From a virus: DNA of 39,678 nt. Position numbers and translations under genes: made by a program. The stretch's first letter is position 1. Every line of letters begins with the position of its first letter. The DNA is taken from UHGV virus genome UHGV-1586583; one strand, written 5' to 3'. Shown piece after piece: positions 2,190 to 31,401 of the stretch. The notes beneath the pieces are model-generated. The model ran no database searches, was not told where the DNA came from, and saw only the letters and a program-made list of their open reading frames with translations.

Positions 2190-2778
2190 GTATGCAACGG
2201 TCGATTTTGACCAGGTTAATGAAAAGGGGCTGAAATCCCTTATCGCGGCGATCAATAAAACCGGTGTTACGGTAATTGAGGTTGACTCCAGCAACCGCGC
2301 AACAACGAAAGATGGCGTTAAAGTTAAAACCGCAAAGCTGGTTCTTAACGACGGACAAATTCTTGCCATACAGGTAAACGATACTGGCGATATATCGTCT
2401 GTGAGGCTGAATGGAAAAGCTATTCCTAACGCTCAATCGCCGGATATCAAGACGCTTGGTACCGTCATGGGGCAAGCGGCCCGCAAAAACTCCGCAAAAT
2501 TCCAGAAATCACTGATCGCCAAAGCGAAACGTGTTGCCAATCCGGTAGACAAGAAACCGGCAGTAAAATCCAACTTTCAGCGCCTGCAAGAGGCAAAACA
2601 GCGGAATGCTCAGGTGGTTGCCGCTTATAAATCAGCGCAGAACTCGGTGTCTTTCAATCAACAGCAGATCACTGATTTGCGGGCGAAGCTGGATAAGGAG
2701 ACAGGCCGACTCAATAACGAAAAGGCCCGAAATGGCGAACTCAAACGCCGTCTTAAGCAACTGAAAGCAGGAAATTAA
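2167..2778 (+). CDS. hdf: Hdf (homolog of DarA fragment), Dar antirestriction operon
   Basis: 203 aa. The segment ...KNSAKFQKSLIAKAK... parallels DarA ...KNSAKFQRAQKKKK... with a coiled-coil tail. The true start may be the ATG at 2176. Confidence 0.6.
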   Translation: MCQMTKNKYATVDFDQVNEKGLKSLIAAINKTGVTVIEVDSSNRATTKDGVKVKTAKLVLNDGQILAIQVNDTGDISSVRLNGKAIPNAQSPDIKTLGTVMGQAARKNSAKFQKSLIAKAKRVANPVDKKPAVKSNFQRLQEAKQRNAQVVAAYKSAQNSVSFNQQQITDLRAKLDKETGRLNNEKARNGELKRRLKQLKAGN

Positions 2779-2779
2779 C

Positions 2780-4699
2780 ATGGAACAGTTCAATATCAAT
2801 AAAGGGGTGACGATCAAGCCTGGGCTTGACGTGCTTCCCCCGCCAGTGACTGATGATGAATATCGCGCATTAATGGCCGGTGAGGACCGCTATCTGATGA
2901 CGGAATCCAACACCCTGGAGGAAATCGAGGCTACGTTCTTCTATGACACGCCGATCCACTGGTGTGCTACGGATTTACTGGAGGCGATTAGTTCTACTCG
3001 TTTGCAGTTACACCGGACCATGCAGGCATTTGTCCGGGCATTGAACCAGAAGCTGAATGGTACCGGAATCTCTGCGGGGAGTGATAAAACGGGGGATGTG
3101 GCCCAGAGCGGCGCGCGCGCGATCGGCGGCGCTGAAATTGGCCGGGCACGTAACGTTAACGGGCTGCCGGTCTTGCCAGCCATTATTCCGCTCAGTGATG
3201 GTCAGACTATCAGCATTCTGTTTCATAGCCCGACAGCGGAAAACCGGATCACCAATAGCGATACGCTGGTTGCTTTCCAGTTCTTACTGAATAAAAAAGA
3301 CGTTACTCACACCGTTGCTCCGATGAGTGGACGTGATATGACGCTGGCGCAGGTCACCATGAAACTTGCCAACCTTGCAGAGAAAAACTCGGCAAAATTC
3401 CAGCGTGCGCAGAAGAAGAAAAAAGCCCTTGTTGATGAAATAACCCAACTACAGGCTGACAGTGACCAGAAAGAGGATGCCATGAGCGACCTCGCGGATC
3501 AGGTGGCAGCGGTAGAAGGGCAGAAGGCAGATCTGGAGCAGAAAATTAACGCTGTTGCATCGGAAGCGGATTCTCTTTATGAAGAGAATGAGCGTTTGCA
3601 GACGGAGATTGATCAGCTCAATCGCACTGGTGGGCGCGATACCATTGCTCCAGCGGGGATGACTGGTGGGCACTCTCGCGCGCTGACGGATCGCCTTGCC
3701 AGTATCAAAAATCGTATGCATATGGACGGGGAAGTGACGCTCAGTAATGGTGCATCAATGAAGCAATTCATTGGGGGCGGCGAAGGGTATATCCAGTTAA
3801 CCGATCCGGATGGCAGCGTATACATGATCAAGGCTAAATCCATACAGGGTGTGGACATGGCAGATGCGATCGGCAAGCTGTTTAAAGCCTATAAAGCGGG
3901 TAATGTATCGGAATACCTGGTCCAACCAGAAGAACATAAACCGGAAAACGTCGAACCTGAACCAGCGGAGGATGCCGGTAGCTCTTCGCCTGAACCAGAA
4001 GTCTCTGTAGGTGCATATCGATATGCCCTGCAAATGCGTCCGGCGGCCCCTGGCGCAATACCTGAAGGTAACAAAGCAATTCTGCCGCGCCCTGATGAAG
4101 GTGACCCGTATTATGAATATGCACGCTACGGCATTGCTACTTACGATACCCCGCTTTCTGATCAGCAAATGAGTGAGTACGACCTGAAGTTATTGCCTCG
4201 CGAGGATTCTTTCGACTTCCTGGCGAAGACACTTACTAATGGTCCGTTTGGCAAATATGCACAAAAAGCTCTGGAGCTGGCCACCAGCTCACCAGACGAG
4301 TTCCGCGTAATGCTGAAAACTCAGTTTCAAAAAACTTTCCCCAATATTGCGTTTCCTGGGGGCGCTGGCACCGAGAAAATGGTGCAGAGCATGATCAATG
4401 CATTGCAGGCCGAAGTCGGTGAGATTCCTCAGCCAGAACCGGCCCCGGCACAGCCTGATGAAACGGTTAGCGAAGCAGATGCAGAGGCTAATAAAGCCAT
4501 TGAATATCTCAATAACGTGATGGATATACAAAGCACTGACATGGCGGAGATCCGTAACGCCCGGGGCAATGTCCGGGAAGCGATTGCAGCCCTTCAGGCT
4601 GCCGGACGTTTTGAGGAAAACGAAGAGCTGGTTAACGGCGCAGCTCGCCACCTGGCTGATCTGTTGGTAGCAATCCAGAAAGCGGGGGTAGCGGCATGA
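2780..4699 (+). CDS. darA: DarA, virion-packaged antirestriction protein
   Basis: 639-aa ORF, matching the size I recall for P1 DarA, in the expected position after hdf, with a coiled-coil region and an internal region homologous to Hdf. Confidence 0.7.
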   Translation: MEQFNINKGVTIKPGLDVLPPPVTDDEYRALMAGEDRYLMTESNTLEEIEATFFYDTPIHWCATDLLEAISSTRLQLHRTMQAFVRALNQKLNGTGISAGSDKTGDVAQSGARAIGGAEIGRARNVNGLPVLPAIIPLSDGQTISILFHSPTAENRITNSDTLVAFQFLLNKKDVTHTVAPMSGRDMTLAQVTMKLANLAEKNSAKFQRAQKKKKALVDEITQLQADSDQKEDAMSDLADQVAAVEGQKADLEQKINAVASEADSLYEENERLQTEIDQLNRTGGRDTIAPAGMTGGHSRALTDRLASIKNRMHMDGEVTLSNGASMKQFIGGGEGYIQLTDPDGSVYMIKAKSIQGVDMADAIGKLFKAYKAGNVSEYLVQPEEHKPENVEPEPAEDAGSSSPEPEVSVGAYRYALQMRPAAPGAIPEGNKAILPRPDEGDPYYEYARYGIATYDTPLSDQQMSEYDLKLLPREDSFDFLAKTLTNGPFGKYAQKALELATSSPDEFRVMLKTQFQKTFPNIAFPGGAGTEKMVQSMINALQAEVGEIPQPEPAPAQPDETVSEADAEANKAIEYLNNVMDIQSTDMAEIRNARGNVREAIAALQAAGRFEENEELVNGAARHLADLLVAIQKAGVAA

Positions 4700-5073: not shown

Positions 5074-8061
5074 ATGAGCTTAAGCGATCAGGTGGTAATG
5101 GCCACCAGCATAGAAACGCTGATCGAGCTGCTAAAGAACCTGCCCGATTATGGGCGGGTTTCGTATGTGGTGACAGCGAAGGGAGACGAGGTAAAAACAG
5201 CGTTTGATATCGTCGATGCCTCAGCTCTTTTGGTATCCAATACTCTGGATGGGAAAATTAATCCTGACTATCCCCAGGAACTTCAGCCGCGCGACCGGAC
5301 CCGCGCATCCAGCCTTCTTCAGGTTAACCAGATATCCAAAGATTTGCGGCCAGCTCAGCTTACTGATTCCGGTTTATCCAGCCATGGTGCGCCAATAATT
5401 GGTGAGGACAATGCCGTTGAGTCAGGTAATGGGCGGACCATGGGGATCATTAAAGCCTATCAGGACGGTAATGCGGATCGGTATCGGGAGTACCTGATTG
5501 AACATGCGACCGAATTCGGCATACGGCCTGAAAAGGTTGAATCAATGACGGCTCCGGTACTGGTGCGCCGCCGGTTAACGAAGGTTGACCGTGTTCAGTT
5601 TGCCAAGGACTCAAATATTTCTGATCTCCAGGAAATGGCAGCCAGTGAAAAGGCTTTTGTTGATGCCGACAGCATAACTCCGGCGATGATGGCGCTGTTT
5701 AACCCATCAGAAAGCGGAGATCTGCTTAGCCGCAGTAATGACGCGTTTATTCGCGGATTCATGACGCAAGTTGGTGCCACACAGGCTGCTGGCCTTGTAA
5801 CGGAAGATGGGCGACCAACACGGCAACTTGTTGACCGTATACAAAACGCGATCTTTGCCAAGGCATATAAGGATGCGCGCCTGGTAAGAATGGTTGCAGA
5901 AGAACCTGATCCGGATATGCGTAATGTTCTGACGGCGCTTAATGCGGCAGCCAATGATTTTGTCCAGATGCAGGCTTTATCAGGAGAAGCGCACAAGCAG
6001 GCTGTGACAACTATTGTTGATGGTATTGAGACAGCGGATAGTCTCGATAAAAAGGCGCTGGCGGCATTGAAAGATGCGGTAGACCTGGTAAGGCAATCGA
6101 AGGAGTCAGGCCAACATATTACCGATGTTATTGCTCAGGGGGATATGTTCAGCGAAACAGCCCCGGAAGTGAAAGCTCTCGCGTTGTTCATCGTCGCGAA
6201 TAACCGTAGCGCGAAGCGTATGGCCACCGCCTTTAAATTGATGGCTCAACGTATCAATGATGAGTTACAGCACCAGGGCCAGGCGCTGGGGGATATGTTT
6301 GGCGGTGGTGATGTGTCGTTACAGGATATCCTTCGCCAGGTGTCTCAGGAACTGGAAAACGAAGGCATGCAAGGGATATCCGGCGGTCTTTTCGAGTCCG
6401 TTTCCGGCGGTAGTTACAACGGTGTTGCTCCATATACCAGCTTGCTATTACATCGGGCATCCGGCATCAAAGACATTATTCATCTGATCAGGCTGCTTTC
6501 CCGTACAGATCCCCAGGATGAACAGCTTGTACAAGTGCTTGCGCATTTTGTTCGAATGCCTGTTGCCGACGTGAATAAATGGTGCCGATTATTCGGTATC
6601 AGCAATTCGTTACTTCGCGGATTGTTAAATCACGCATCCTCCCTTGGGCGCGACGGCTTTGATGAGATAGCGCAGGCGATAAAAAACGGAGATATGCCAC
6701 CAGCTATTGACTGGTTTTCCATTCGCCCAACCAGGGTGAAAGCATTCCTTAGCGCGGCGCATTCGGCATCACCATTGGCAGAAATGATTCAGAGGTTGTC
6801 GCTCATATTCACAGACCATACCGCGTTGGGTGATCTGACTCTGGACGAGATGAAAGAAGCCTCCATTCAGTGGGCCGATCAACAAAATGAGGTTAACTCA
6901 GACTTCTTGCCAGCATTCAGGAAGGCCGTTAGTAAAGCGGATGATGCCCGTGGAATTCTGAAGGCATTTAAGGCATTGCAAAGTCGGGTTAATAAACATG
7001 TCGGTGATATCGATGGGGTAACGGCGGAAGGCAGGGATATCCTTAAAGAGCACGGCATAACGCCAGAGTTTATTGATGAGATCAGGACGGATATGCAGCG
7101 TGAGGTCGTATCGTCCCTGCAAATCGTAGCCAGAGCGTTGGCGGATGCTAATCCGAAGAGTGCGGCCATTGTTAACCGGGTTATTGGTGATATTGAAGCA
7201 TCGGAGGGCATGGGGGCGCTGAAACTCTTCCTTTCGCGAGCGTTTAATCCTAACGGCAATATTCTCCCTGGCATTATTGGTGAGGCTAAAAAGTATGTCA
7301 GTGAAGAAGAACTTGAGCAGCTTGACCAACTACTTAAGCGATTCTCATATAACCCGCAGATACGCTGGCAAATGAATCAGCGAAGTATGGGTTCGGTCCA
7401 CGAGAAAGTGTTATCTGCCATGAACAGTGCGATCGCAAACTCATCCGTATCTGAAGAAAAAGCTCTTGAGTGGGCCGACTCTTTTATCACAGAAGAAGTG
7501 GAAGAAGCCCGCGCTGGACAGAATGGTGGGATAGACCTGCGCAAGGAACTTGCTGATATTTATCGCCTGACCGGCGGGAAAATATCGACCTTATCAAAGG
7601 TAGTTCACCACCAGGGAAGGGCATATGCAAATCTTAATGGTGTTGTTGCTGTCAATTTGAACGATGAAAATGCAAGTGCACTGTGGCACGAGCTGGGTCA
7701 TCATCTTGAGTACAGTAACCCTGGTTTGTTAGAGAAAGCCCGGTCATTCCTGAAGGCCAATGTTGAAGGGGATAAGCCATCTTTCGTCAATATCGGTGGG
7801 CGTGGCAAGCCTGAATGGTGCTTCAGATCTCGATTGAGTAATATTTATATGGCGAAGGTATACCCGCCAGCCTCAGTAAGTAACACCGGGAAAATTCGGC
7901 AGAAATCACCGACTATTTCCAAAACGTCAGCAACGGAAGTATTCTCTATGGCTCTTCAGTTGTATCATGACAAAGAGGCCGCTGCCGCATCACTGATGAA
8001 TGGTGACGGATTGCTGGAACTGTTATTAGGTGTGGCAAAGGAGCTAAATAATGCAGATTAA
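5074..8061 (+). CDS. ddrB: DdrB, large Dar operon protein
   Basis: 995-aa ORF downstream of ddrA, consistent in size and order with P1 DdrB. Confidence 0.65.
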   Translation: MSLSDQVVMATSIETLIELLKNLPDYGRVSYVVTAKGDEVKTAFDIVDASALLVSNTLDGKINPDYPQELQPRDRTRASSLLQVNQISKDLRPAQLTDSGLSSHGAPIIGEDNAVESGNGRTMGIIKAYQDGNADRYREYLIEHATEFGIRPEKVESMTAPVLVRRRLTKVDRVQFAKDSNISDLQEMAASEKAFVDADSITPAMMALFNPSESGDLLSRSNDAFIRGFMTQVGATQAAGLVTEDGRPTRQLVDRIQNAIFAKAYKDARLVRMVAEEPDPDMRNVLTALNAAANDFVQMQALSGEAHKQAVTTIVDGIETADSLDKKALAALKDAVDLVRQSKESGQHITDVIAQGDMFSETAPEVKALALFIVANNRSAKRMATAFKLMAQRINDELQHQGQALGDMFGGGDVSLQDILRQVSQELENEGMQGISGGLFESVSGGSYNGVAPYTSLLLHRASGIKDIIHLIRLLSRTDPQDEQLVQVLAHFVRMPVADVNKWCRLFGISNSLLRGLLNHASSLGRDGFDEIAQAIKNGDMPPAIDWFSIRPTRVKAFLSAAHSASPLAEMIQRLSLIFTDHTALGDLTLDEMKEASIQWADQQNEVNSDFLPAFRKAVSKADDARGILKAFKALQSRVNKHVGDIDGVTAEGRDILKEHGITPEFIDEIRTDMQREVVSSLQIVARALADANPKSAAIVNRVIGDIEASEGMGALKLFLSRAFNPNGNILPGIIGEAKKYVSEEELEQLDQLLKRFSYNPQIRWQMNQRSMGSVHEKVLSAMNSAIANSSVSEEKALEWADSFITEEVEEARAGQNGGIDLRKELADIYRLTGGKISTLSKVVHHQGRAYANLNGVVAVNLNDENASALWHELGHHLEYSNPGLLEKARSFLKANVEGDKPSFVNIGGRGKPEWCFRSRLSNIYMAKVYPPASVSNTGKIRQKSPTISKTSATEVFSMALQLYHDKEAAAASLMNGDGLLELLLGVAKELNNAD

Positions 8062-8361: not shown

Positions 8362-8387
8362 AAATCCCGCCAATCGGCGGGATTTTT
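8362..8387 (+). terminator. Rho-independent terminator of the lyd/dar operon
   Basis: AAATCCCGCC-AATC-GGCGGGATTT hairpin followed by a T-run, placed between the convergent dar operon and the minus-strand gene ending at 8391. Confidence 0.6.
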
Positions 8388-8390
8388 ACC

Positions 8391-9485
8391 TCACGAGAAG
8401 CTTTTTTCTGATGTCAGCCAACAGTGCTCGTGCAAATCTCTTGGTGGTTTTTCGACAAATGCCTCTTCAGCCACATCCTGCCAGGGGATTTGTTTAGCCC
8501 ATTCAGTTATAGCGTTATGGTTTGCCGAGAATAACGGTATTGTATAGGCCTTCAGCCAGTCTAATGTGCTGGAGTTGTGTTTTTGAGCGTGATGTTTCGC
8601 ATGGTGTTTGGCGATCACGATCGTAGGCACTACCCATTTACTACCGTCAGTCATTGTGAAGTGCATATTACGGGGAACAGATGACTTTTCCATCAACTCC
8701 CGAATCCCGGGGAATTTCCCCAAGATCAATCGGCGATATTCATCGCTATTGCGCCCACCAAACTCTTTGGCTTTGAATTCAAGATATGCTTCAGAAACGA
8801 GAGGTGAATCCTCTGTGTTTAGAGTTATCGCCGTGAAAAAACCAGCAGGATTGTTTTTACTATGGGCCAACCGGTGATGCGAATCATAAAAGTACCCTTT
8901 CTCGCGTTCCGATGGTTTCGACAGCAACAGCAGGCGCGAGTCATAATTGGTTAAATTGCCAGTTATCACTGCATGAGCGCGATCGCTGATTTCCGCCGAG
9001 TTAATAACGATGAAAAGATCGTGCGGTCCAGTAAAACCAGCCAGAGACTCTTCGTTATTCAGACAATAGGTTATATAGACGCATCCCCATGTTTCACTGA
9101 TATGCACCAACCCTTTGTCAGGGTGTATTCTGAAATAATTGCCAAGAAAAGGGTGTTTTTGGGTAACTCGCTCCCAATAACGGAACATATAGTCAATTAT
9201 TGTTTTTCGACTATCGTTAATCGCAGGAGAAACAACCACTGTACGGGAACACGAATACAGTATTGTTTGCAGGATGCTAATCACTGCCACAATAGAGGTT
9301 TCCCCAATACCATGTGGTGTGGTGGCAGTGACTTTGGCTCCGGTGTTCTTTATCGCGTTAATAATTTTTGCTTGATGAGGTGTTAACTCAATATCAAGCA
9401 ACTCTTTTGCTGCCAGTTCCCAATTGTCTTTATACCGTTCTATCAGTGCTAACCAGGCAGATTCATTCTGTATACGATTAATCAC
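8391..9485 (-). CDS. PacB-like terminase large-subunit paralog with degenerate ATPase motifs
   Basis: 364 aa. Aligns by eye to the N-terminal ATPase region of the PacB at 28724..30208 ([22 protein letters not shown] versus [21 protein letters not shown]). Walker A reads GIGETS where PacB has GTGKS; Walker B reads FIVINSAE where PacB has YIIDEAS. Confidence 0.6.
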   Translation of the reverse strand: MINRIQNESAWLALIERYKDNWELAAKELLDIELTPHQAKIINAIKNTGAKVTATTPHGIGETSIVAVISILQTILYSCSRTVVVSPAINDSRKTIIDYMFRYWERVTQKHPFLGNYFRIHPDKGLVHISETWGCVYITYCLNNEESLAGFTGPHDLFIVINSAEISDRAHAVITGNLTNYDSRLLLLSKPSEREKGYFYDSHHRLAHSKNNPAGFFTAITLNTEDSPLVSEAYLEFKAKEFGGRNSDEYRRLILGKFPGIRELMEKSSVPRNMHFTMTDGSKWVVPTIVIAKHHAKHHAQKHNSSTLDWLKAYTIPLFSANHNAITEWAKQIPWQDVAEEAFVEKPPRDLHEHCWLTSEKSFS

Positions 9486-10266
9486 TTTCCACCTCTTCCG
9501 TGGTGTTTTCTTGCAGTTCTGTTAATGCAGCACGACATAGGTTCCGGGCATTGGCTATAGCCACACTTTTGACTTCATCCGTCATCGTGCAGGTAATGTA
9601 CTGATCGAGTTCTTCAGCGCGGATGATGCTTTTGCCAATCAGAAACTGTATTTGCCAGAGCAGATCGGCATCCATAATCAGAATTTCTGCCGGGCCTTCA
9701 GGGCCAGCCGGGAAGGAAACATAAGACTGTTTGCCCAGGCCGACAACTCGACAACTTGCTTCAAGAATTGCGCGCTTGAGGTCTGACTTTATAACGGAAA
9801 CAGGTTGATTTTCACCAGTGATTACGCCGTTGACATGGAAAGGCATGTAGCTTGAAATACGCTCCACTTTCCACACGCCAGCAAGCGATCCTTCATGCAG
9901 CACAATGGGGGTAACCGCGAGTTTCATCTCACCATATAGCTGCTGGCAGATAGCTGGATTGCTGAATACATCTAAAGGCTCACATTCAAACAGCGGCGCA
10001 ATCTGCATGAGGTCCATCATGGTCATCCCTGGAGTACGAGCAGTAATGAATCTGCGCATACCAGTATCCATTGCGCTCCAGATTGCTACACCATGCTTTT
10101 TGCTCACTTCTTCAGTAAAGCCAAGGTGGCACATGATGGTTTTTTCGATAGCCAGATCGGAGATAGAAACCTTTTCGCCAGGTACACCATCATTATTGAT
10201 GGTCACTTCGACACTCTGGCCATTACGCAGGCGGTATTGAATTGTTTTAGTATTTTGTGCTGCCAT
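9478..10266 (-). CDS. Hypothetical protein, operonic partner of the PacB-like gene
   Basis: ORF overlaps the start of the downstream PacB-like gene by 8 nt. The track extends it to a TTG at 10386 (302 aa); I prefer the ATG at 10266 (MAAQNTK..., about 262 aa) because a separate small ORF ends 15 nt upstream. Confidence 0.45.
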   Translation of the reverse strand: MAAQNTKTIQYRLRNGQSVEVTINNDGVPGEKVSISDLAIEKTIMCHLGFTEEVSKKHGVAIWSAMDTGMRRFITARTPGMTMMDLMQIAPLFECEPLDVFSNPAICQQLYGEMKLAVTPIVLHEGSLAGVWKVERISSYMPFHVNGVITGENQPVSVIKSDLKRAILEASCRVVGLGKQSYVSFPAGPEGPAEILIMDADLLWQIQFLIGKSIIRAEELDQYITCTMTDEVKSVAIANARNLCRAALTELQENTTEEVESD

Positions 10267-10280
10267 AGTCTTTTCTCTGC

Positions 10281-10463
10281 TTAAAAACTGATGTATTGCG
10301 CCTTCAGGTGGGTCAGGAATGTTTTCCCACCAGCGAAAGCAATATCTCGGGGTGTTCTGTTCGTTAAAAACGCGTTCCATTGCCAACTTTGGCGTTTTTT
10401 AGCGAGTTCGTGCTTTTGTTGGCGTTTGGACCACCGCTTTTCTTTCAGTCGTTTTTTACTCAT
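10281..10463 (-). CDS. Small highly basic protein, possibly coupled to ssb
   Basis: 60-aa Lys/Arg-rich ORF (MSKKRLKEKRWSKRQQKHELAKKRQ...) starting 5 nt after the ssb stop codon. It is mutually exclusive with the 302-aa extension of the neighbouring gene. Confidence 0.3.
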   Translation of the reverse strand: MSKKRLKEKRWSKRQQKHELAKKRQSWQWNAFLTNRTPRDIAFAGGKTFLTHLKAQYISF

Positions 10464-10468
10464 AAACT

Positions 10469-10957
10469 CTAAAACGGAATATCGTCTTCAAAGTCCATTG
10501 GAGGTTCGTTATTGGCGCTGCTCTGAGGTTTGCCACCACCGCTGTATTGCTGGTGGTTTTGAGGTTGGTTTGACTGCCCCCAGCCATTTGAGGACTGTGA
10601 ATCGTCGCGGCGAGCGCCGATCATTTGCATGGTGCCGCCCTGGCTGACGATAATTTCCGTCGTGTAACGTTCTACACCGGCGTCATCTGTCCACTTACGG
10701 GTTTTAAGTTTCCCTTCGATGTAGACCTGAGAACCTTTTCGTAAATACTCACTCGCAATTTCAGCAAGTTTTCCGAACAAAACGACTTTATGCCATTCTG
10801 TTTGCTCTTTCTGTTGGCCCGTTTGCTTGTCGCGCCATGATTCATTCGTTGCGATGCTGAGTCTTCCGACCGCGCCGCCATTTGGTATATACCTGATCTC
10901 CGGGTCTTGCCCCAGGGTACCAATCAGGATGACTTTGTTTACACCGCGTTGTGCCAC
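10469..10957 (-). CDS. ssb: Single-stranded DNA-binding protein
   Basis: [23 protein letters not shown]...[14 protein letters not shown]...GGTMQM...DDIPF: OB-fold SSB with the conserved acidic C-terminal tail. Confidence 0.92.
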
Positions 10958-10976: not shown

Positions 10977-10993
10977 AAATTAATTAGAGCAAT
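10977..10993 (-). promoter_or_regulatory. C1 repressor operator (ATTGCTCTAATTAATTT)
   Basis: 16 of 17 match to the P1 C1 operator consensus ATTGCTCTAATAAATTT as I recall it, in the divergent ssb/lyz intergenic region 20 bp upstream of the ssb start. Confidence 0.6.
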
Positions 10994-28723: not shown

Positions 28724-30208
28724 TTATTCATTAAGCCATGCCAGAGCTTCATCAACCTGCGCTTCGTCTTCGACGCTAAGCACTTCATCTTGGGGAACAT
28801 AGTTCGCCAACATAGCGAAACAATATGTATCCCAATGGTCCGGTGAGTGCAGGTTGAGTTTTTTCTTCATATCTTCCTTTGACATCACCTTCCATTGACC
28901 TGCGGAATTTATCCCTACCGGTATCTTTGATGCTTCCTCTATAGTCGCAGCCCCCTTATCAAGCCTCATACGCCCTGATTTTACAGCTTCTGCCGCCTGA
29001 ATATTCGCGAAAGCGCGCATATCGAAATAAAGGCTTTTATCTTCACGGCTGTGCATCTTTTTACCCCAGCGGATACGCTGGACGGTAATGCCATAGCGTT
29101 CGTACATTAGATCAGCCGTCGATTTCCCCAAGCCATCGCCATCAATAGCTATGGTTATGTTCGGGAACCGTTCTGGGTTACATTCTGCGAAAATCTTGGC
29201 GGCTAACTGCGTTTCTGTAACGTCTGTGTATTCCAGCATACGATAGTTGATTACACGGCGTTTATTTCGCTGGCCGGACACCATCATGATATTAATAACG
29301 GACTTATCTCGTCCTGTGCCACCAGCAACGTCAACACATGCAACCCAGCCCCATCCTTTGGCAATCTTGACCTTTCGCCGCGTCGCCCGCTCAACCTCAT
29401 CACGACCAAGAAGAAAGCCATCTTGAGATTTGGGAAATTCACCACGTACTTTGATCATGTACATGGGGTTATCACGACCGCCATACTCCGCAAGTTTTGC
29501 TCGTATAAATTTTGCATCTACAAGCGGAGATTCTTCACTATTCAGTATTATCGCAGTAAACAATCCATCAGGATTTCCCGGGCGAATAGCTAGTCTGTGG
29601 TGTGAATCGTAGAAATAGCCTGAAGGTCGCGTAGGCTGGGAAAGAAGCAGAATACGGTTATCCTTACCGGTCAGCGCACCTGTTATCACACTGAATGCTT
29701 TATCACTCACACCCGACGCTTCGTCGATGATATACAAGAGATGATCGGCGTGTTCACCAGCCAACGCCTCCTCATTTCCGGGGCGACAGGACTTTATCAA
29801 TATTGTCCAAACACCCTTGCCAGTCACCTCAAAAAAAGACGTTTCTGTAAGAATGAAATACTTCGACAACCACGGGAATCTGCTAACAGCAGTAGCCCAA
29901 TTGCTCTTTATGTATTTGAAAATACCATCAAGGACTTGCTGTCTTTTGTTAGCGACCAGAATGACGCGAGCGCCAGGGAAAAACATGATGAAGAGTATTG
30001 CAATGATACTCGTCATATCCGATTTACCAGTACCATGGCCGGAGGTCACACTTGTCCAACTGCCGTCCTGCTGCGTGGACTCAATGATCTCATCCTGCTG
30101 CCAGGTTGGTGTCTTCCCAAACAACACATCAGCGGCCGCAATCCAGTCATAACGATATAGCGCCACCAGCTCGCGCCAACGTGGGTCCGTTACGCAACTT
30201 CTGGCCAT
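28724..30208 (-). CDS. pacB: Pacase (terminase) large subunit PacB
   Basis: 494-aa protein with Walker A SGHGTGKS and Walker B YIIDEAS, start overlapping the pacA stop. Confidence 0.9.
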
Positions 30209-31401
30209 TAATCATCATCCCCGTACAGTTTGCGGGTAACTTCTTCGTCTTCCTCCTCGTCTTCGTCCAGATCCTGTTCAAGCCATGCTTCGTTTGATAT
30301 GCCTTCCGCATCGACATCACCATAACCACCTGTATCGACGATATCGGCAATTTCTTCTCTACGATGCTCAATCCACAATGCCGCATCAGCGCGGCGGCTG
30401 GCGGCCCGTTCTCGCGCGATTTTATCCAGATCTTCAAGTGATGGAGCGCCAGATGCTGTTTGGTTTTCCTCATCATCGGTATTGGTCTTAGGAGCACGCA
30501 GATCGGCTTTGATTTGCTCCAGCATCAGGGGCGGCACTTTTCCTCCATGCGCCTCGATGAATTCAGCCGCTTCCAGCACTGACCAGTTATTTTCACGCTT
30601 TCGTTCGTATGCCAGCTTAACAATGCCAGCTTGCCCCATAGATAAAGCGTGCTTTTCCGCCTCCCGGCTTTCTTTTCGATAGTTATTCCGGATGCTGTAA
30701 ATGGTGTTGATCAGGCTGCTTATCTGCGCGGAACAGCTGTTTAGCATGCTCGCGATACGGTATTCAGGCGGAGTACCTTCATCATCGTCTTTTTGCTGAT
30801 CGCGCATTTCCTGCACTAGGCGAATACACGTATCCCTGGCGTTCTCCAGCATAAGGAGATGCGAAAGAGACTTTTCCAGAAGAGTGGTTTCCAGAACATC
30901 GGCCCCGGACCGACGCAACATAGCGCGCGCGGCCTTCCGCGCTTCAACGTTATCTATCAGGTAATCGCCAGCTTCGAATTCAAAGCGTTCACCATCATCA
31001 TCCAGGGTGTCGCGTTCCAGGCGATCACGCAAGGTCCGGTGGGCGCGGGTGATCACGTCATGATCATCTGAACGATCATTTATGCGCTTATTTTGGCGCT
31101 TCGCATTCTCGACTGCGGCACTGACAACGGCATTAACTCTTTGTTTTTCCGCTATTTCAGCCGAAATGTGATCACCTGCATGTTGATCATTAGAGTGATC
31201 AATGATCATGCTTTTTAGTGGCTTCCTGACTGGCTTATTTGGCTTGCGGCTGTCCGTAGTCCTGGTGTCTTCTTTGAAGGCACGGAGATAACGACGTGCG
31301 GTATTAGGGTTAAGATTAAACTCGGCGGCATACTGTGCGATGGTGTAACCACCATCTCGCGCCAGGCGAGCAAAATTCTTCTTGTGATCGTCCCAGGTCA
31401 C
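30208..31401 (-). CDS. pacA: Pacase (terminase) small subunit PacA, containing the pac site
   Basis: 397-aa protein with an N-terminal HTH-like segment and a highly acidic C-terminus. The pac hexamer cluster lies within its 5' coding region. Confidence 0.9.
31048..31210. other. pac packaging site (clustered TGATCA Dam-site hexamers)
   Basis: TGATCA at 31050, 31061 (plus CGATCA at 31073) and at 31169, 31184, 31196, 31203: two clusters of 3 and 4 about 90 bp apart, the architecture I recall for the roughly 162-bp P1 pac site. Confidence 0.8.

Follow-up and report, generated by a model that had tools for sequence, protein, structure and literature searches.

A predicted terminase pseudoenzyme behind ssb and isaA in P1-like phage-plasmids

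The UHGV virus genome UHGV-1586583, a stretch of 39,678 nucleotides that we refer to as the window, is that of a P1-like phage-plasmid (Punavirus). Between positions 8000 and 11000 it shows 99.7% identity to phage vB_EcoM-813R1 and 96% identity to P1 where the two can be aligned. On its minus strand the genes run from ssb through isaA to an open reading frame (ORF) of 364 amino acids, and beyond it lie hxr/ddrB of the dar region, oriented convergently. We describe here this last ORF, which, judged from its sequence, encodes a pseudoenzyme: a terminase ATPase fold derived from PacB, the large terminase subunit, in which the nucleotide site has been replaced and to which no nuclease is attached. 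The protein, called the dead copy hereafter, is predicted to be unable to serve as an ATP-driven motor or as a nuclease. It is part of an old, monophyletic and retained family of dead copies, and probably exerts its effect through binding, not by packaging DNA.

Loss of the nucleotide site and of the nuclease

In a preliminary description of this region, the protein had been aligned by eye along the ATPase region of the intact PacB in the window, with Walker A read as GIGETS and Walker B as FIVINSAE. BLASTP bears out the alignment, as residues 11–272 match residues 11–274 of PacB with 35% identity over ~265 amino acids (E = 5e-52). The protein also falls into phrog_5902 (E = 1.6e-186), the same PHROG that contains PacB, and a tblastn search of the whole window returned no third PacB-like copy. 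Because SGHGTGKS of PacB aligns with TPHGIGET, the Walker A lysine corresponds to Glu62 of the dead copy. In the segment DLFIVINSA, Ile161 and Asn162 take the places of the Walker B aspartate and the catalytic glutamate, which PacB retains in IIDEAS. Both substitutions read by eye are thus found in the alignments, in which no canonical Walker residues were hidden by misalignment, and the column analysis of 30 terminases given below agrees. For PacB residues 275–494, the nuclease half, neither BLASTP nor the alignments revealed a counterpart. Set against a functional large terminase subunit (TerL), the dead copy has the terminase-type additional strand catalytic E (ASCE) ATPase domain and lacks the Walker A lysine, the Walker B aspartate and glutamate, and the RNase H-like nuclease domain. 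Its start codon is GTG, with the Shine-Dalgarno sequence GAGGTGG located 4 nucleotides upstream.

Structure prediction was employed for the same protein. The AlphaFold model has a mean predicted local distance difference test score (pLDDT) of 87.6, with values above 90 in the N-terminal domain and 60–80 in the C-terminal tail. The top Foldseek matches in the PDB are the terminase ATPase domains of Sf6 gp2, HK97, P74-26, D6E and T4 gp17, with E values from 1e-10 to 1e-6, and in a library of viral structures the model matched large terminases only. The tail is modeled as a β-hairpin plus helices and represents a different protein family from the PacB nuclease. Alignment and structure model, proposed at the outset as the way to decide whether a nuclease domain is retained, both indicate that it is gone and that an unrelated tail stands in its place.

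The tail matches the C-terminal part of phrog_17928 (positions 407–489 of 511). A profile built from five tails retrieved 939 proteins, nearly all of them stand-alone proteins of ~100 amino acids, for which no Pfam family was found; a profile search of PDB sequences with the tail gave no significant match. The family shares the motif MPDGS-W-VP, followed by PLF and W, with a further W near the C-terminus. Tail homologs directly follow DnaB-type helicase genes in Cronobacter phage JK004 (gene_35) and in lambdoid prophages, there within a nin-like set of accessory genes, and another lies in the early region of an Acinetobacter prophage. In Xanthomonas phages the tail forms the C-terminus of a coiled-coil protein encoded beside recombinase, exonuclease and single-stranded DNA-binding protein (SSB) genes. 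As a side observation, members of the tail family are typically encoded after DnaB-type helicase genes, within nin-like early regions of Enterobacteriaceae and Acinetobacter prophages.

An exhaustive HMMER search revealed relatives of the dead copy that share its defect. In these, Walker A and Walker B take the forms GIGHKS and IIVMDAA in P0004 (366 amino acids, with the tail), GIGRP and FIIVDSA in P0002, GIGRAP and FIVVNAA in P0006, GVGTHT and TIVLHAA in P0007, GVGMHT and FIITDAA in P0009, GTGISH and VIIPDAT in P0010, GIGCKH and FICPNAN in P0013, GVGTNQ and IIVPQAS in P0014, and AFDSTR and IVVSKAA in P0042 (268 amino acids; L015 644..1450). Most dead relatives, at ~260 amino acids, consist of the ATPase domain alone without tail, while full-length relatives at 49–53% identity retain it. 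The cluster of 97% identical proteins, P0001, comprises 851 sequences, all of 364 amino acids.

Comparison of alignment columns between 11 dead proteins and 30 true PacB-like terminases showed which positions have changed. The residues S56, G57, H58, T60, K62, Q91, H152, D161, E162, S164, G165, Q190, T192 and R194, two of which (Q190 and T192) are C-motif residues, are 80–100% conserved in the true enzymes and are all lost in the dead set. The Walker A lysine is present in 100% of the 30 true relatives and absent from 11 of the 11 dead proteins; D161 and E162, conserved in 93% and 100% of the true terminases, are Ile and Asn in the dead copy of the window. The dead set retains the fold residues Q38, G59, G61, W133, G150, P191, G197, F199, H204, S227, P228, G256 and F258. 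A further group of positions, W11, L14, W22, A25, L34, L72, I75, D226, Y234 and R251, is conserved solely within the dead clade.

Ten dead proteins form one clade (99 of 100 neighbor-joining bootstraps) nested inside the PacB-like terminases, in which intact ORFs persist down to ~32% identity across several P1-like lineages. A single origin of all dead copies was rejected, as P0042 branches with other true terminases and represents an independent inactivation. For the closest allele pair, the window and MH422554, the ratio of nonsynonymous to synonymous substitution rates (dN/dS) is 0.20, a value based on 12 differences only. The family thus shows the sequence pattern expected of a retained, non-catalytic paralog: catalytic residues lost, with fold and ORF kept over long divergence.

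Neighborhood, distribution and tempo

The upstream gene had been taken as an unknown partner that overlaps the dead copy by 8 nucleotides. The overlap itself is correct, the start of the dead copy and the stop of isaA sharing positions 9478..9485. The partner is recognizable by its sequence as the P1 gene isaA, to which it is 96% identical at the nucleotide level, and the overlap points to translational coupling of the two genes. The pairing itself stood in part. It recurs in two further P1-like contigs, L006 and L007, where the IsaA homologs are 47% and 44% identical to that of the window; for the pair in a second P1-like lineage the identities are 47% and 49%. There the order is dUTPase, a Tad2-like gene, the IsaA homolog and the dead terminase, on the cre side of the genome; the pair has therefore been conserved while its position moved. 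It is not obligate, since 336 PLSDB plasmids contain isaA and 120 contain the dead copy, and distant members of the family follow other genes. Divergent IsaA homologs begin at the methionine of position 10266, which makes the longer starts (302 amino acids here; 320 amino acids from an upstream GTG in the P1 annotation) unlikely. The predicted structure of IsaA is weak (pLDDT 65.7) and without a fold match in the PDB, and a profile search of PDB sequences with IsaA gave no significant match either.

A leader of ~200 nucleotides separates ssb from isaA. In SJ46 (L023 2682..3527) and Ro157c2YLVW (L022 3399..4076) a Tad2-like (PF11195) gene follows next, and that of SJ46 begins at the ATG where isaA starts here. 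In the window and in P1, isaA comes directly after the leader and starts at that same ATG. The Tad2-like gene, a candidate anti-Thoeris gene, therefore looks like a cassette that is present or absent behind the ssb leader. The spacer was also considered as a decayed Tad2-like gene; this was rejected, as the leader is conserved and the cassette is cleanly absent. Within the leader lies a very basic ORF of 60 amino acids (MSKKRLKEKRWSKRQQKHELAKKRQ...) at 10281..10463 on the minus strand, for which P1 has no matching ATG.

A search with a C1 operator consensus gave nine matches in the window against 0.16 expected. One of them, ATTGCTCTAATTAATTT with one mismatch, lies upstream of ssb and corresponds to Ossb, which the P1 annotation places over the ssb promoters. 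A consensus scan of the interval from ssb to the dead copy detected no terminator on the minus strand. The 31-nucleotide gap between hxr and the dead copy contains a hairpin, AAATCCCGCC-GATT-GGCGGGATTT, with T-rich tracts on both strands, that the consensus scan had missed; it is likely a bidirectional terminator. The dead copy thus probably closes an early ssb-isaA operon that is repressed by C1. Judged from the C1 operator and the gene order, it would be expressed early, before the late protein PacB; in P1 the pacA-pacB unit is expressed late.

The long contigs examined that carry members of the clade all look P1-like, with a C1 repressor, a Cre-type integrase, hot and humD, and those that reach the pac region have their own pacA and a pacB of ~500 amino acids. 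In PLSDB, 594 plasmids carry pacB, and the dead copy is accessory, occurring in a patchy manner in ~20% of these P1-like plasmids (120 of 594) and being absent from P1. This answers the question of presence or absence across P1-like genomes that had been raised with the preliminary description. The location between ssb and dar, where P1 had been said to carry IS1, is right, and the difference is larger than an insertion: in reference P1, isaB and IS1 fill the slot in place of the whole gene, with the homology to the window starting again right at the stop codon of isaA. The possibility that P1 isaB is a remnant of the dead copy was rejected, as isaB, next to IS1 in this slot of P1 (L001 1972..2577 and 2711..3478), is unrelated in sequence. 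After isaA, Ro157c2YLVW has an ORF of 95 amino acids and SJ46 has nothing; the 95-amino-acid ORF was considered as a free tail domain and rejected for its unrelated sequence. IsaA also occurs without the dead copy. P0013 (L011 7336..8792), encoded beside cre in a P1-like element, shares 4 nucleotides with the end of a gene for a Ref-like RecA-dependent nuclease, stop codon included, which suggests translational coupling to this Ref-like partner, not to IsaA, and further members of the clade follow a radical-SAM gene or small ORFs.

On its other side, the dead copy adjoins the dar anti-restriction region. The stretch isaA-IS1-isaB has been described as a hypervariable region of P1-like plasmids (PMC6906374, PMC9603915), and isaA is non-essential in P1 (PMC10695390). 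None of these three papers, on P1-like plasmids and on P1 essentiality, mentions a terminase paralog.

The tempo of divergence was compared between L006 and L007, which are syntenic. Their backbone genes are 76–90% identical, C1 69%, the Tad2-like protein 61%, IsaA 60% and the dead terminase 49%, so that the dead copy is the fastest-diverging gene of its neighborhood. The PacB proteins of the same pair are 78% identical. Among four lineages, pairs of PacB proteins are 55–78% identical and pairs of dead copies 32–49%; co-divergence of the dead copies with the resident PacB is rejected by these pairwise identities.

Table 1. Features of the dead copy, its operon and the terminase genes of the window, with homologs of the tail in other sequences
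Feature	Position	Strand	Evidence
Gene of the dead PacB paralog, 364 amino acids (stop codon included)	8391..9485	-	ORF list, BLASTP, phrog_5902
N-terminal domain, residues 1–262, predicted inactive terminase large-subunit ATPase fold	8700..9485	-	AlphaFold and Foldseek
Degenerate Walker A, residues 56–63, TPHGIGET (PacB SGHGTGKS)	9297..9320	-	alignments
Degenerate Walker B/catalytic Glu, residues 157–165, LFIVINSAE	8991..9017	-	alignments and column analysis
C-terminal tail, residues 263–364, unrelated small domain in place of the nuclease	8394..8699	-	PHROG and profile search
isaA, 262 amino acids from the ATG at 10266	9478..10266	-	96% nucleotide identity to P1 isaA; phrog_2326
Conserved leader that separates ssb from the first accessory gene	10267..10468	-	92% identical to the SJ46 leader
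Basic ORF of 60 amino acids in the ssb-isaA leader	10281..10463	-	begins 6 nucleotides past the ssb stop
ssb, first gene of the putative operon	10469..10957	-	ORF and P1 annotation
Putative C1 repressor operator upstream of ssb (Ossb/Op21 equivalent)	10977..10993	-	consensus match ATTGCTCTAATTAATTT
GC-rich hairpin in the gap that separates hxr from the convergent gene of the dead copy	8363..8386	.	read directly in the sequence
pacB, intact large terminase subunit, 494 amino acids	28724..30208	-	GTGKS and IIDEAS; phrog_2 terminase large subunit, E = 1.7e-44
pacA, terminase partner of PacB	30208..31401	-	phrog_1711 terminase, E = 2e-202
Tail homologs, examples of the tail family	L004 4010..4306; L018 6001..6315; L021 6001..6318		

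Possible functions of the dead copy

As it is predicted neither to translocate nor to cut DNA, the dead copy would depend on binding for its effect, mimicking the ATPase domain of PacB in a conflict role. We tentatively rank first a counter-defense or decoy role against terminase-sensing immunity, in which the dead copy would be made early in lytic growth, before PacB, and would occupy or divert the host sensors of the terminase ATPase fold (Avs1–3, Upx). As a decoy it would lack the ATP-dependent contacts that activate these sensors. The gene neighborhood, the presumed early timing, the patchy occurrence and the rapid divergence speak for this role. The surrounding genes suggest conflict: the dar anti-restriction region adjoins the dead copy of the window, a Tad2-like gene stands upstream of the pair in L006 and L007 and upstream of isaA in SJ46 and Ro157c2YLVW, and Ref-like or radical-SAM genes are the neighbors elsewhere. 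The terminase ATPase domain alone has been found to activate EcAvs2 and Upx, and recognition by Avs2 uses the ATP bound to the terminase, with a bridging ATP at the interface in addition in the case of EcAvs2 (bioRxiv 10.64898/2026.04.30.721860). In its fullest form, namely that fast-evolving P1-like look-alikes of the terminase, made early as decoys of a conserved viral molecular pattern, neutralize or blind terminase-sensing nucleotide-binding leucine-rich repeat (NLR)-like receptors (Avs1–3, Upx) with IsaA as a cofactor, the proposal is unlikely.

Several points weigh against the decoy role. A mimic of an immune trigger may set the sensors off instead of blocking them. Since Avs2 makes contact with ATP, a dead copy without an ATP site may fail to bind Avs2 at all, and the loss of the site may then be evasion or lost constraint. 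The early expression is read from the operator and the gene order, and the fast divergence could reflect relaxed constraint or exchange of cassettes. Lastly, scans of the dead copy and IsaA with Pfam, NCBIfam and PADLOC returned nothing usable.

A role in packaging is possible, though we consider it rather doubtful. As a modulator or dominant-negative subunit, the dead copy would bind PacA, PacB or the portal and either delay the phage's own pac cleavage or poison the motor of a rival P1-like phage. Pseudoenzyme paralogs commonly regulate their active relatives, and the dead copy is a direct paralog of the resident PacB with the fold residues retained, and its presumed early expression would precede packaging. 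T4 motors doped with ATPase-dead subunits show reduced DNA engagement, more frequent failure and a lower speed (PMC8589836), which agrees with such a role. The dead copy is, however, only 35% identical to its own PacB and lacks the C-terminal half of it, and the N-terminal helix positions W11, L14, W22, A25 and L34, conserved in the dead clade, differ from those of true terminases. It also diverges faster than PacB (49% against 78% in L006 and L007), so that there is no sign of tight co-evolution with a packaging partner, and ~80% of P1-like plasmids do without it, as does P1, whose packaging is normal.

An accessory function in early DNA metabolism, in which the inactive ATPase fold would bind DNA or form a scaffold and the tail would attach the dead copy to proteins of replication or recombination, is improbable. 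The presumed co-transcription with ssb fits such a function, as does the overlap of one clade member with a Ref-like RecA-dependent nuclease gene and the position of tail homologs after DnaB-type helicase genes or, fused to a coiled coil, beside recombination genes. Most members of the clade have no tail, however, nin-like regions are themselves mixtures of accessory genes, and profile scans found no DNA-binding or recombination motif. That the gene is a functionless remnant of a partially duplicated pacB, on its way to being lost, is very improbable, for although all catalytic residues are lost and the gene is dispensable and often replaced, a decaying pseudogene is disfavored by the single clade with intact ORFs to ~32% identity in several P1-like lineages, the conserved fold and clade-specific residues, the tail conserved at 53% overall identity, the dN/dS of 0.2, the 851 near-identical full-length copies, and the good Shine-Dalgarno sequence with apparent coupling to isaA.

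Implications and comparison with known systems

Large terminases rank with the most conserved phage proteins, and the pattern-recognition immunity of bacteria has them as a main target. A conserved family of dead terminase domains, produced separately from the intact terminase, would represent a new kind of pseudoenzyme in phages and, if the functions considered above hold, either a counter-measure to terminase sensing, the reading we prefer, or a built-in brake or weapon on DNA packaging. As P1 lacks the gene and its close relatives carry it, natural carriers being vB_EcoM-813R1 and 100%-identical plasmids of ~96 kb, these hypotheses can be tested cheaply. The analysis also corrects the annotation, in that MH422554 and MH445380 label the dead copy as "terminase large subunit" in GenBank and PHROG 5902 pools it with PacB. 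The isaA region of P1 gains context as an accessory operon that follows ssb, has a C1 operator and holds Tad2-like and other swappable cargo.

The dead copy resembles PacB of P1, which forms the pacase with PacA, in the homology of the ATPase domain, the assignment to PHROG 5902 and the predicted fold, and is encoded in the same genome. It differs from PacB in that the Walker A lysine, the Walker B aspartate, the catalytic glutamate, the C-motif threonine and other site residues are replaced, that the nuclease is missing and a foreign tail of ~100 amino acids is present, and that the gene is accessory and is found not in the pacA-pacB unit, expressed late in P1, but in a presumably early operon that has a C1 operator. 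Interference with packaging by way of the terminase subunits is known for satellite and phage proteins, such as those from Staphylococcus aureus pathogenicity islands (SaPI Ppi) and phage-inducible chromosomal islands (PICI Rpp). They are small accessory proteins that bind the packaging machinery and do not catalyze, which is the logic of the packaging role considered above, but their target is the small subunit, and they have no homology to terminases. Tad2, which sequesters the signaling nucleotide of Thoeris, offers a comparison of another kind. Genes of the Tad2 type share with the dead copy the same accessory early operon (ssb leader, Tad2-like gene, isaA), the patchy distribution and a divergence faster than that of the backbone, whereas neither sequence nor fold relates them to it, and nothing points to a similar sequestering activity of the dead copy.

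The protein vs.8 of T4 is a stand-alone terminase-ATPase-like protein with intact Walker motifs that activates EcAvs2 (bioRxiv 10.64898/2026.04.30.721860). Compared by description, it is similar to the dead copy in consisting of the ATPase domain only, in being encoded besides a complete terminase and in being limited to one phage lineage; it differs in that vs.8 keeps Walker A and B, both of which the P1-like dead family has lost. In the literature and databases searched, no published description of a conserved, catalytically dead clade of terminase domains was found. Stand-alone terminase-like ATPases are thus already known, as vs.8 illustrates, whereas a conserved clade of dead terminase domains appears to be new.

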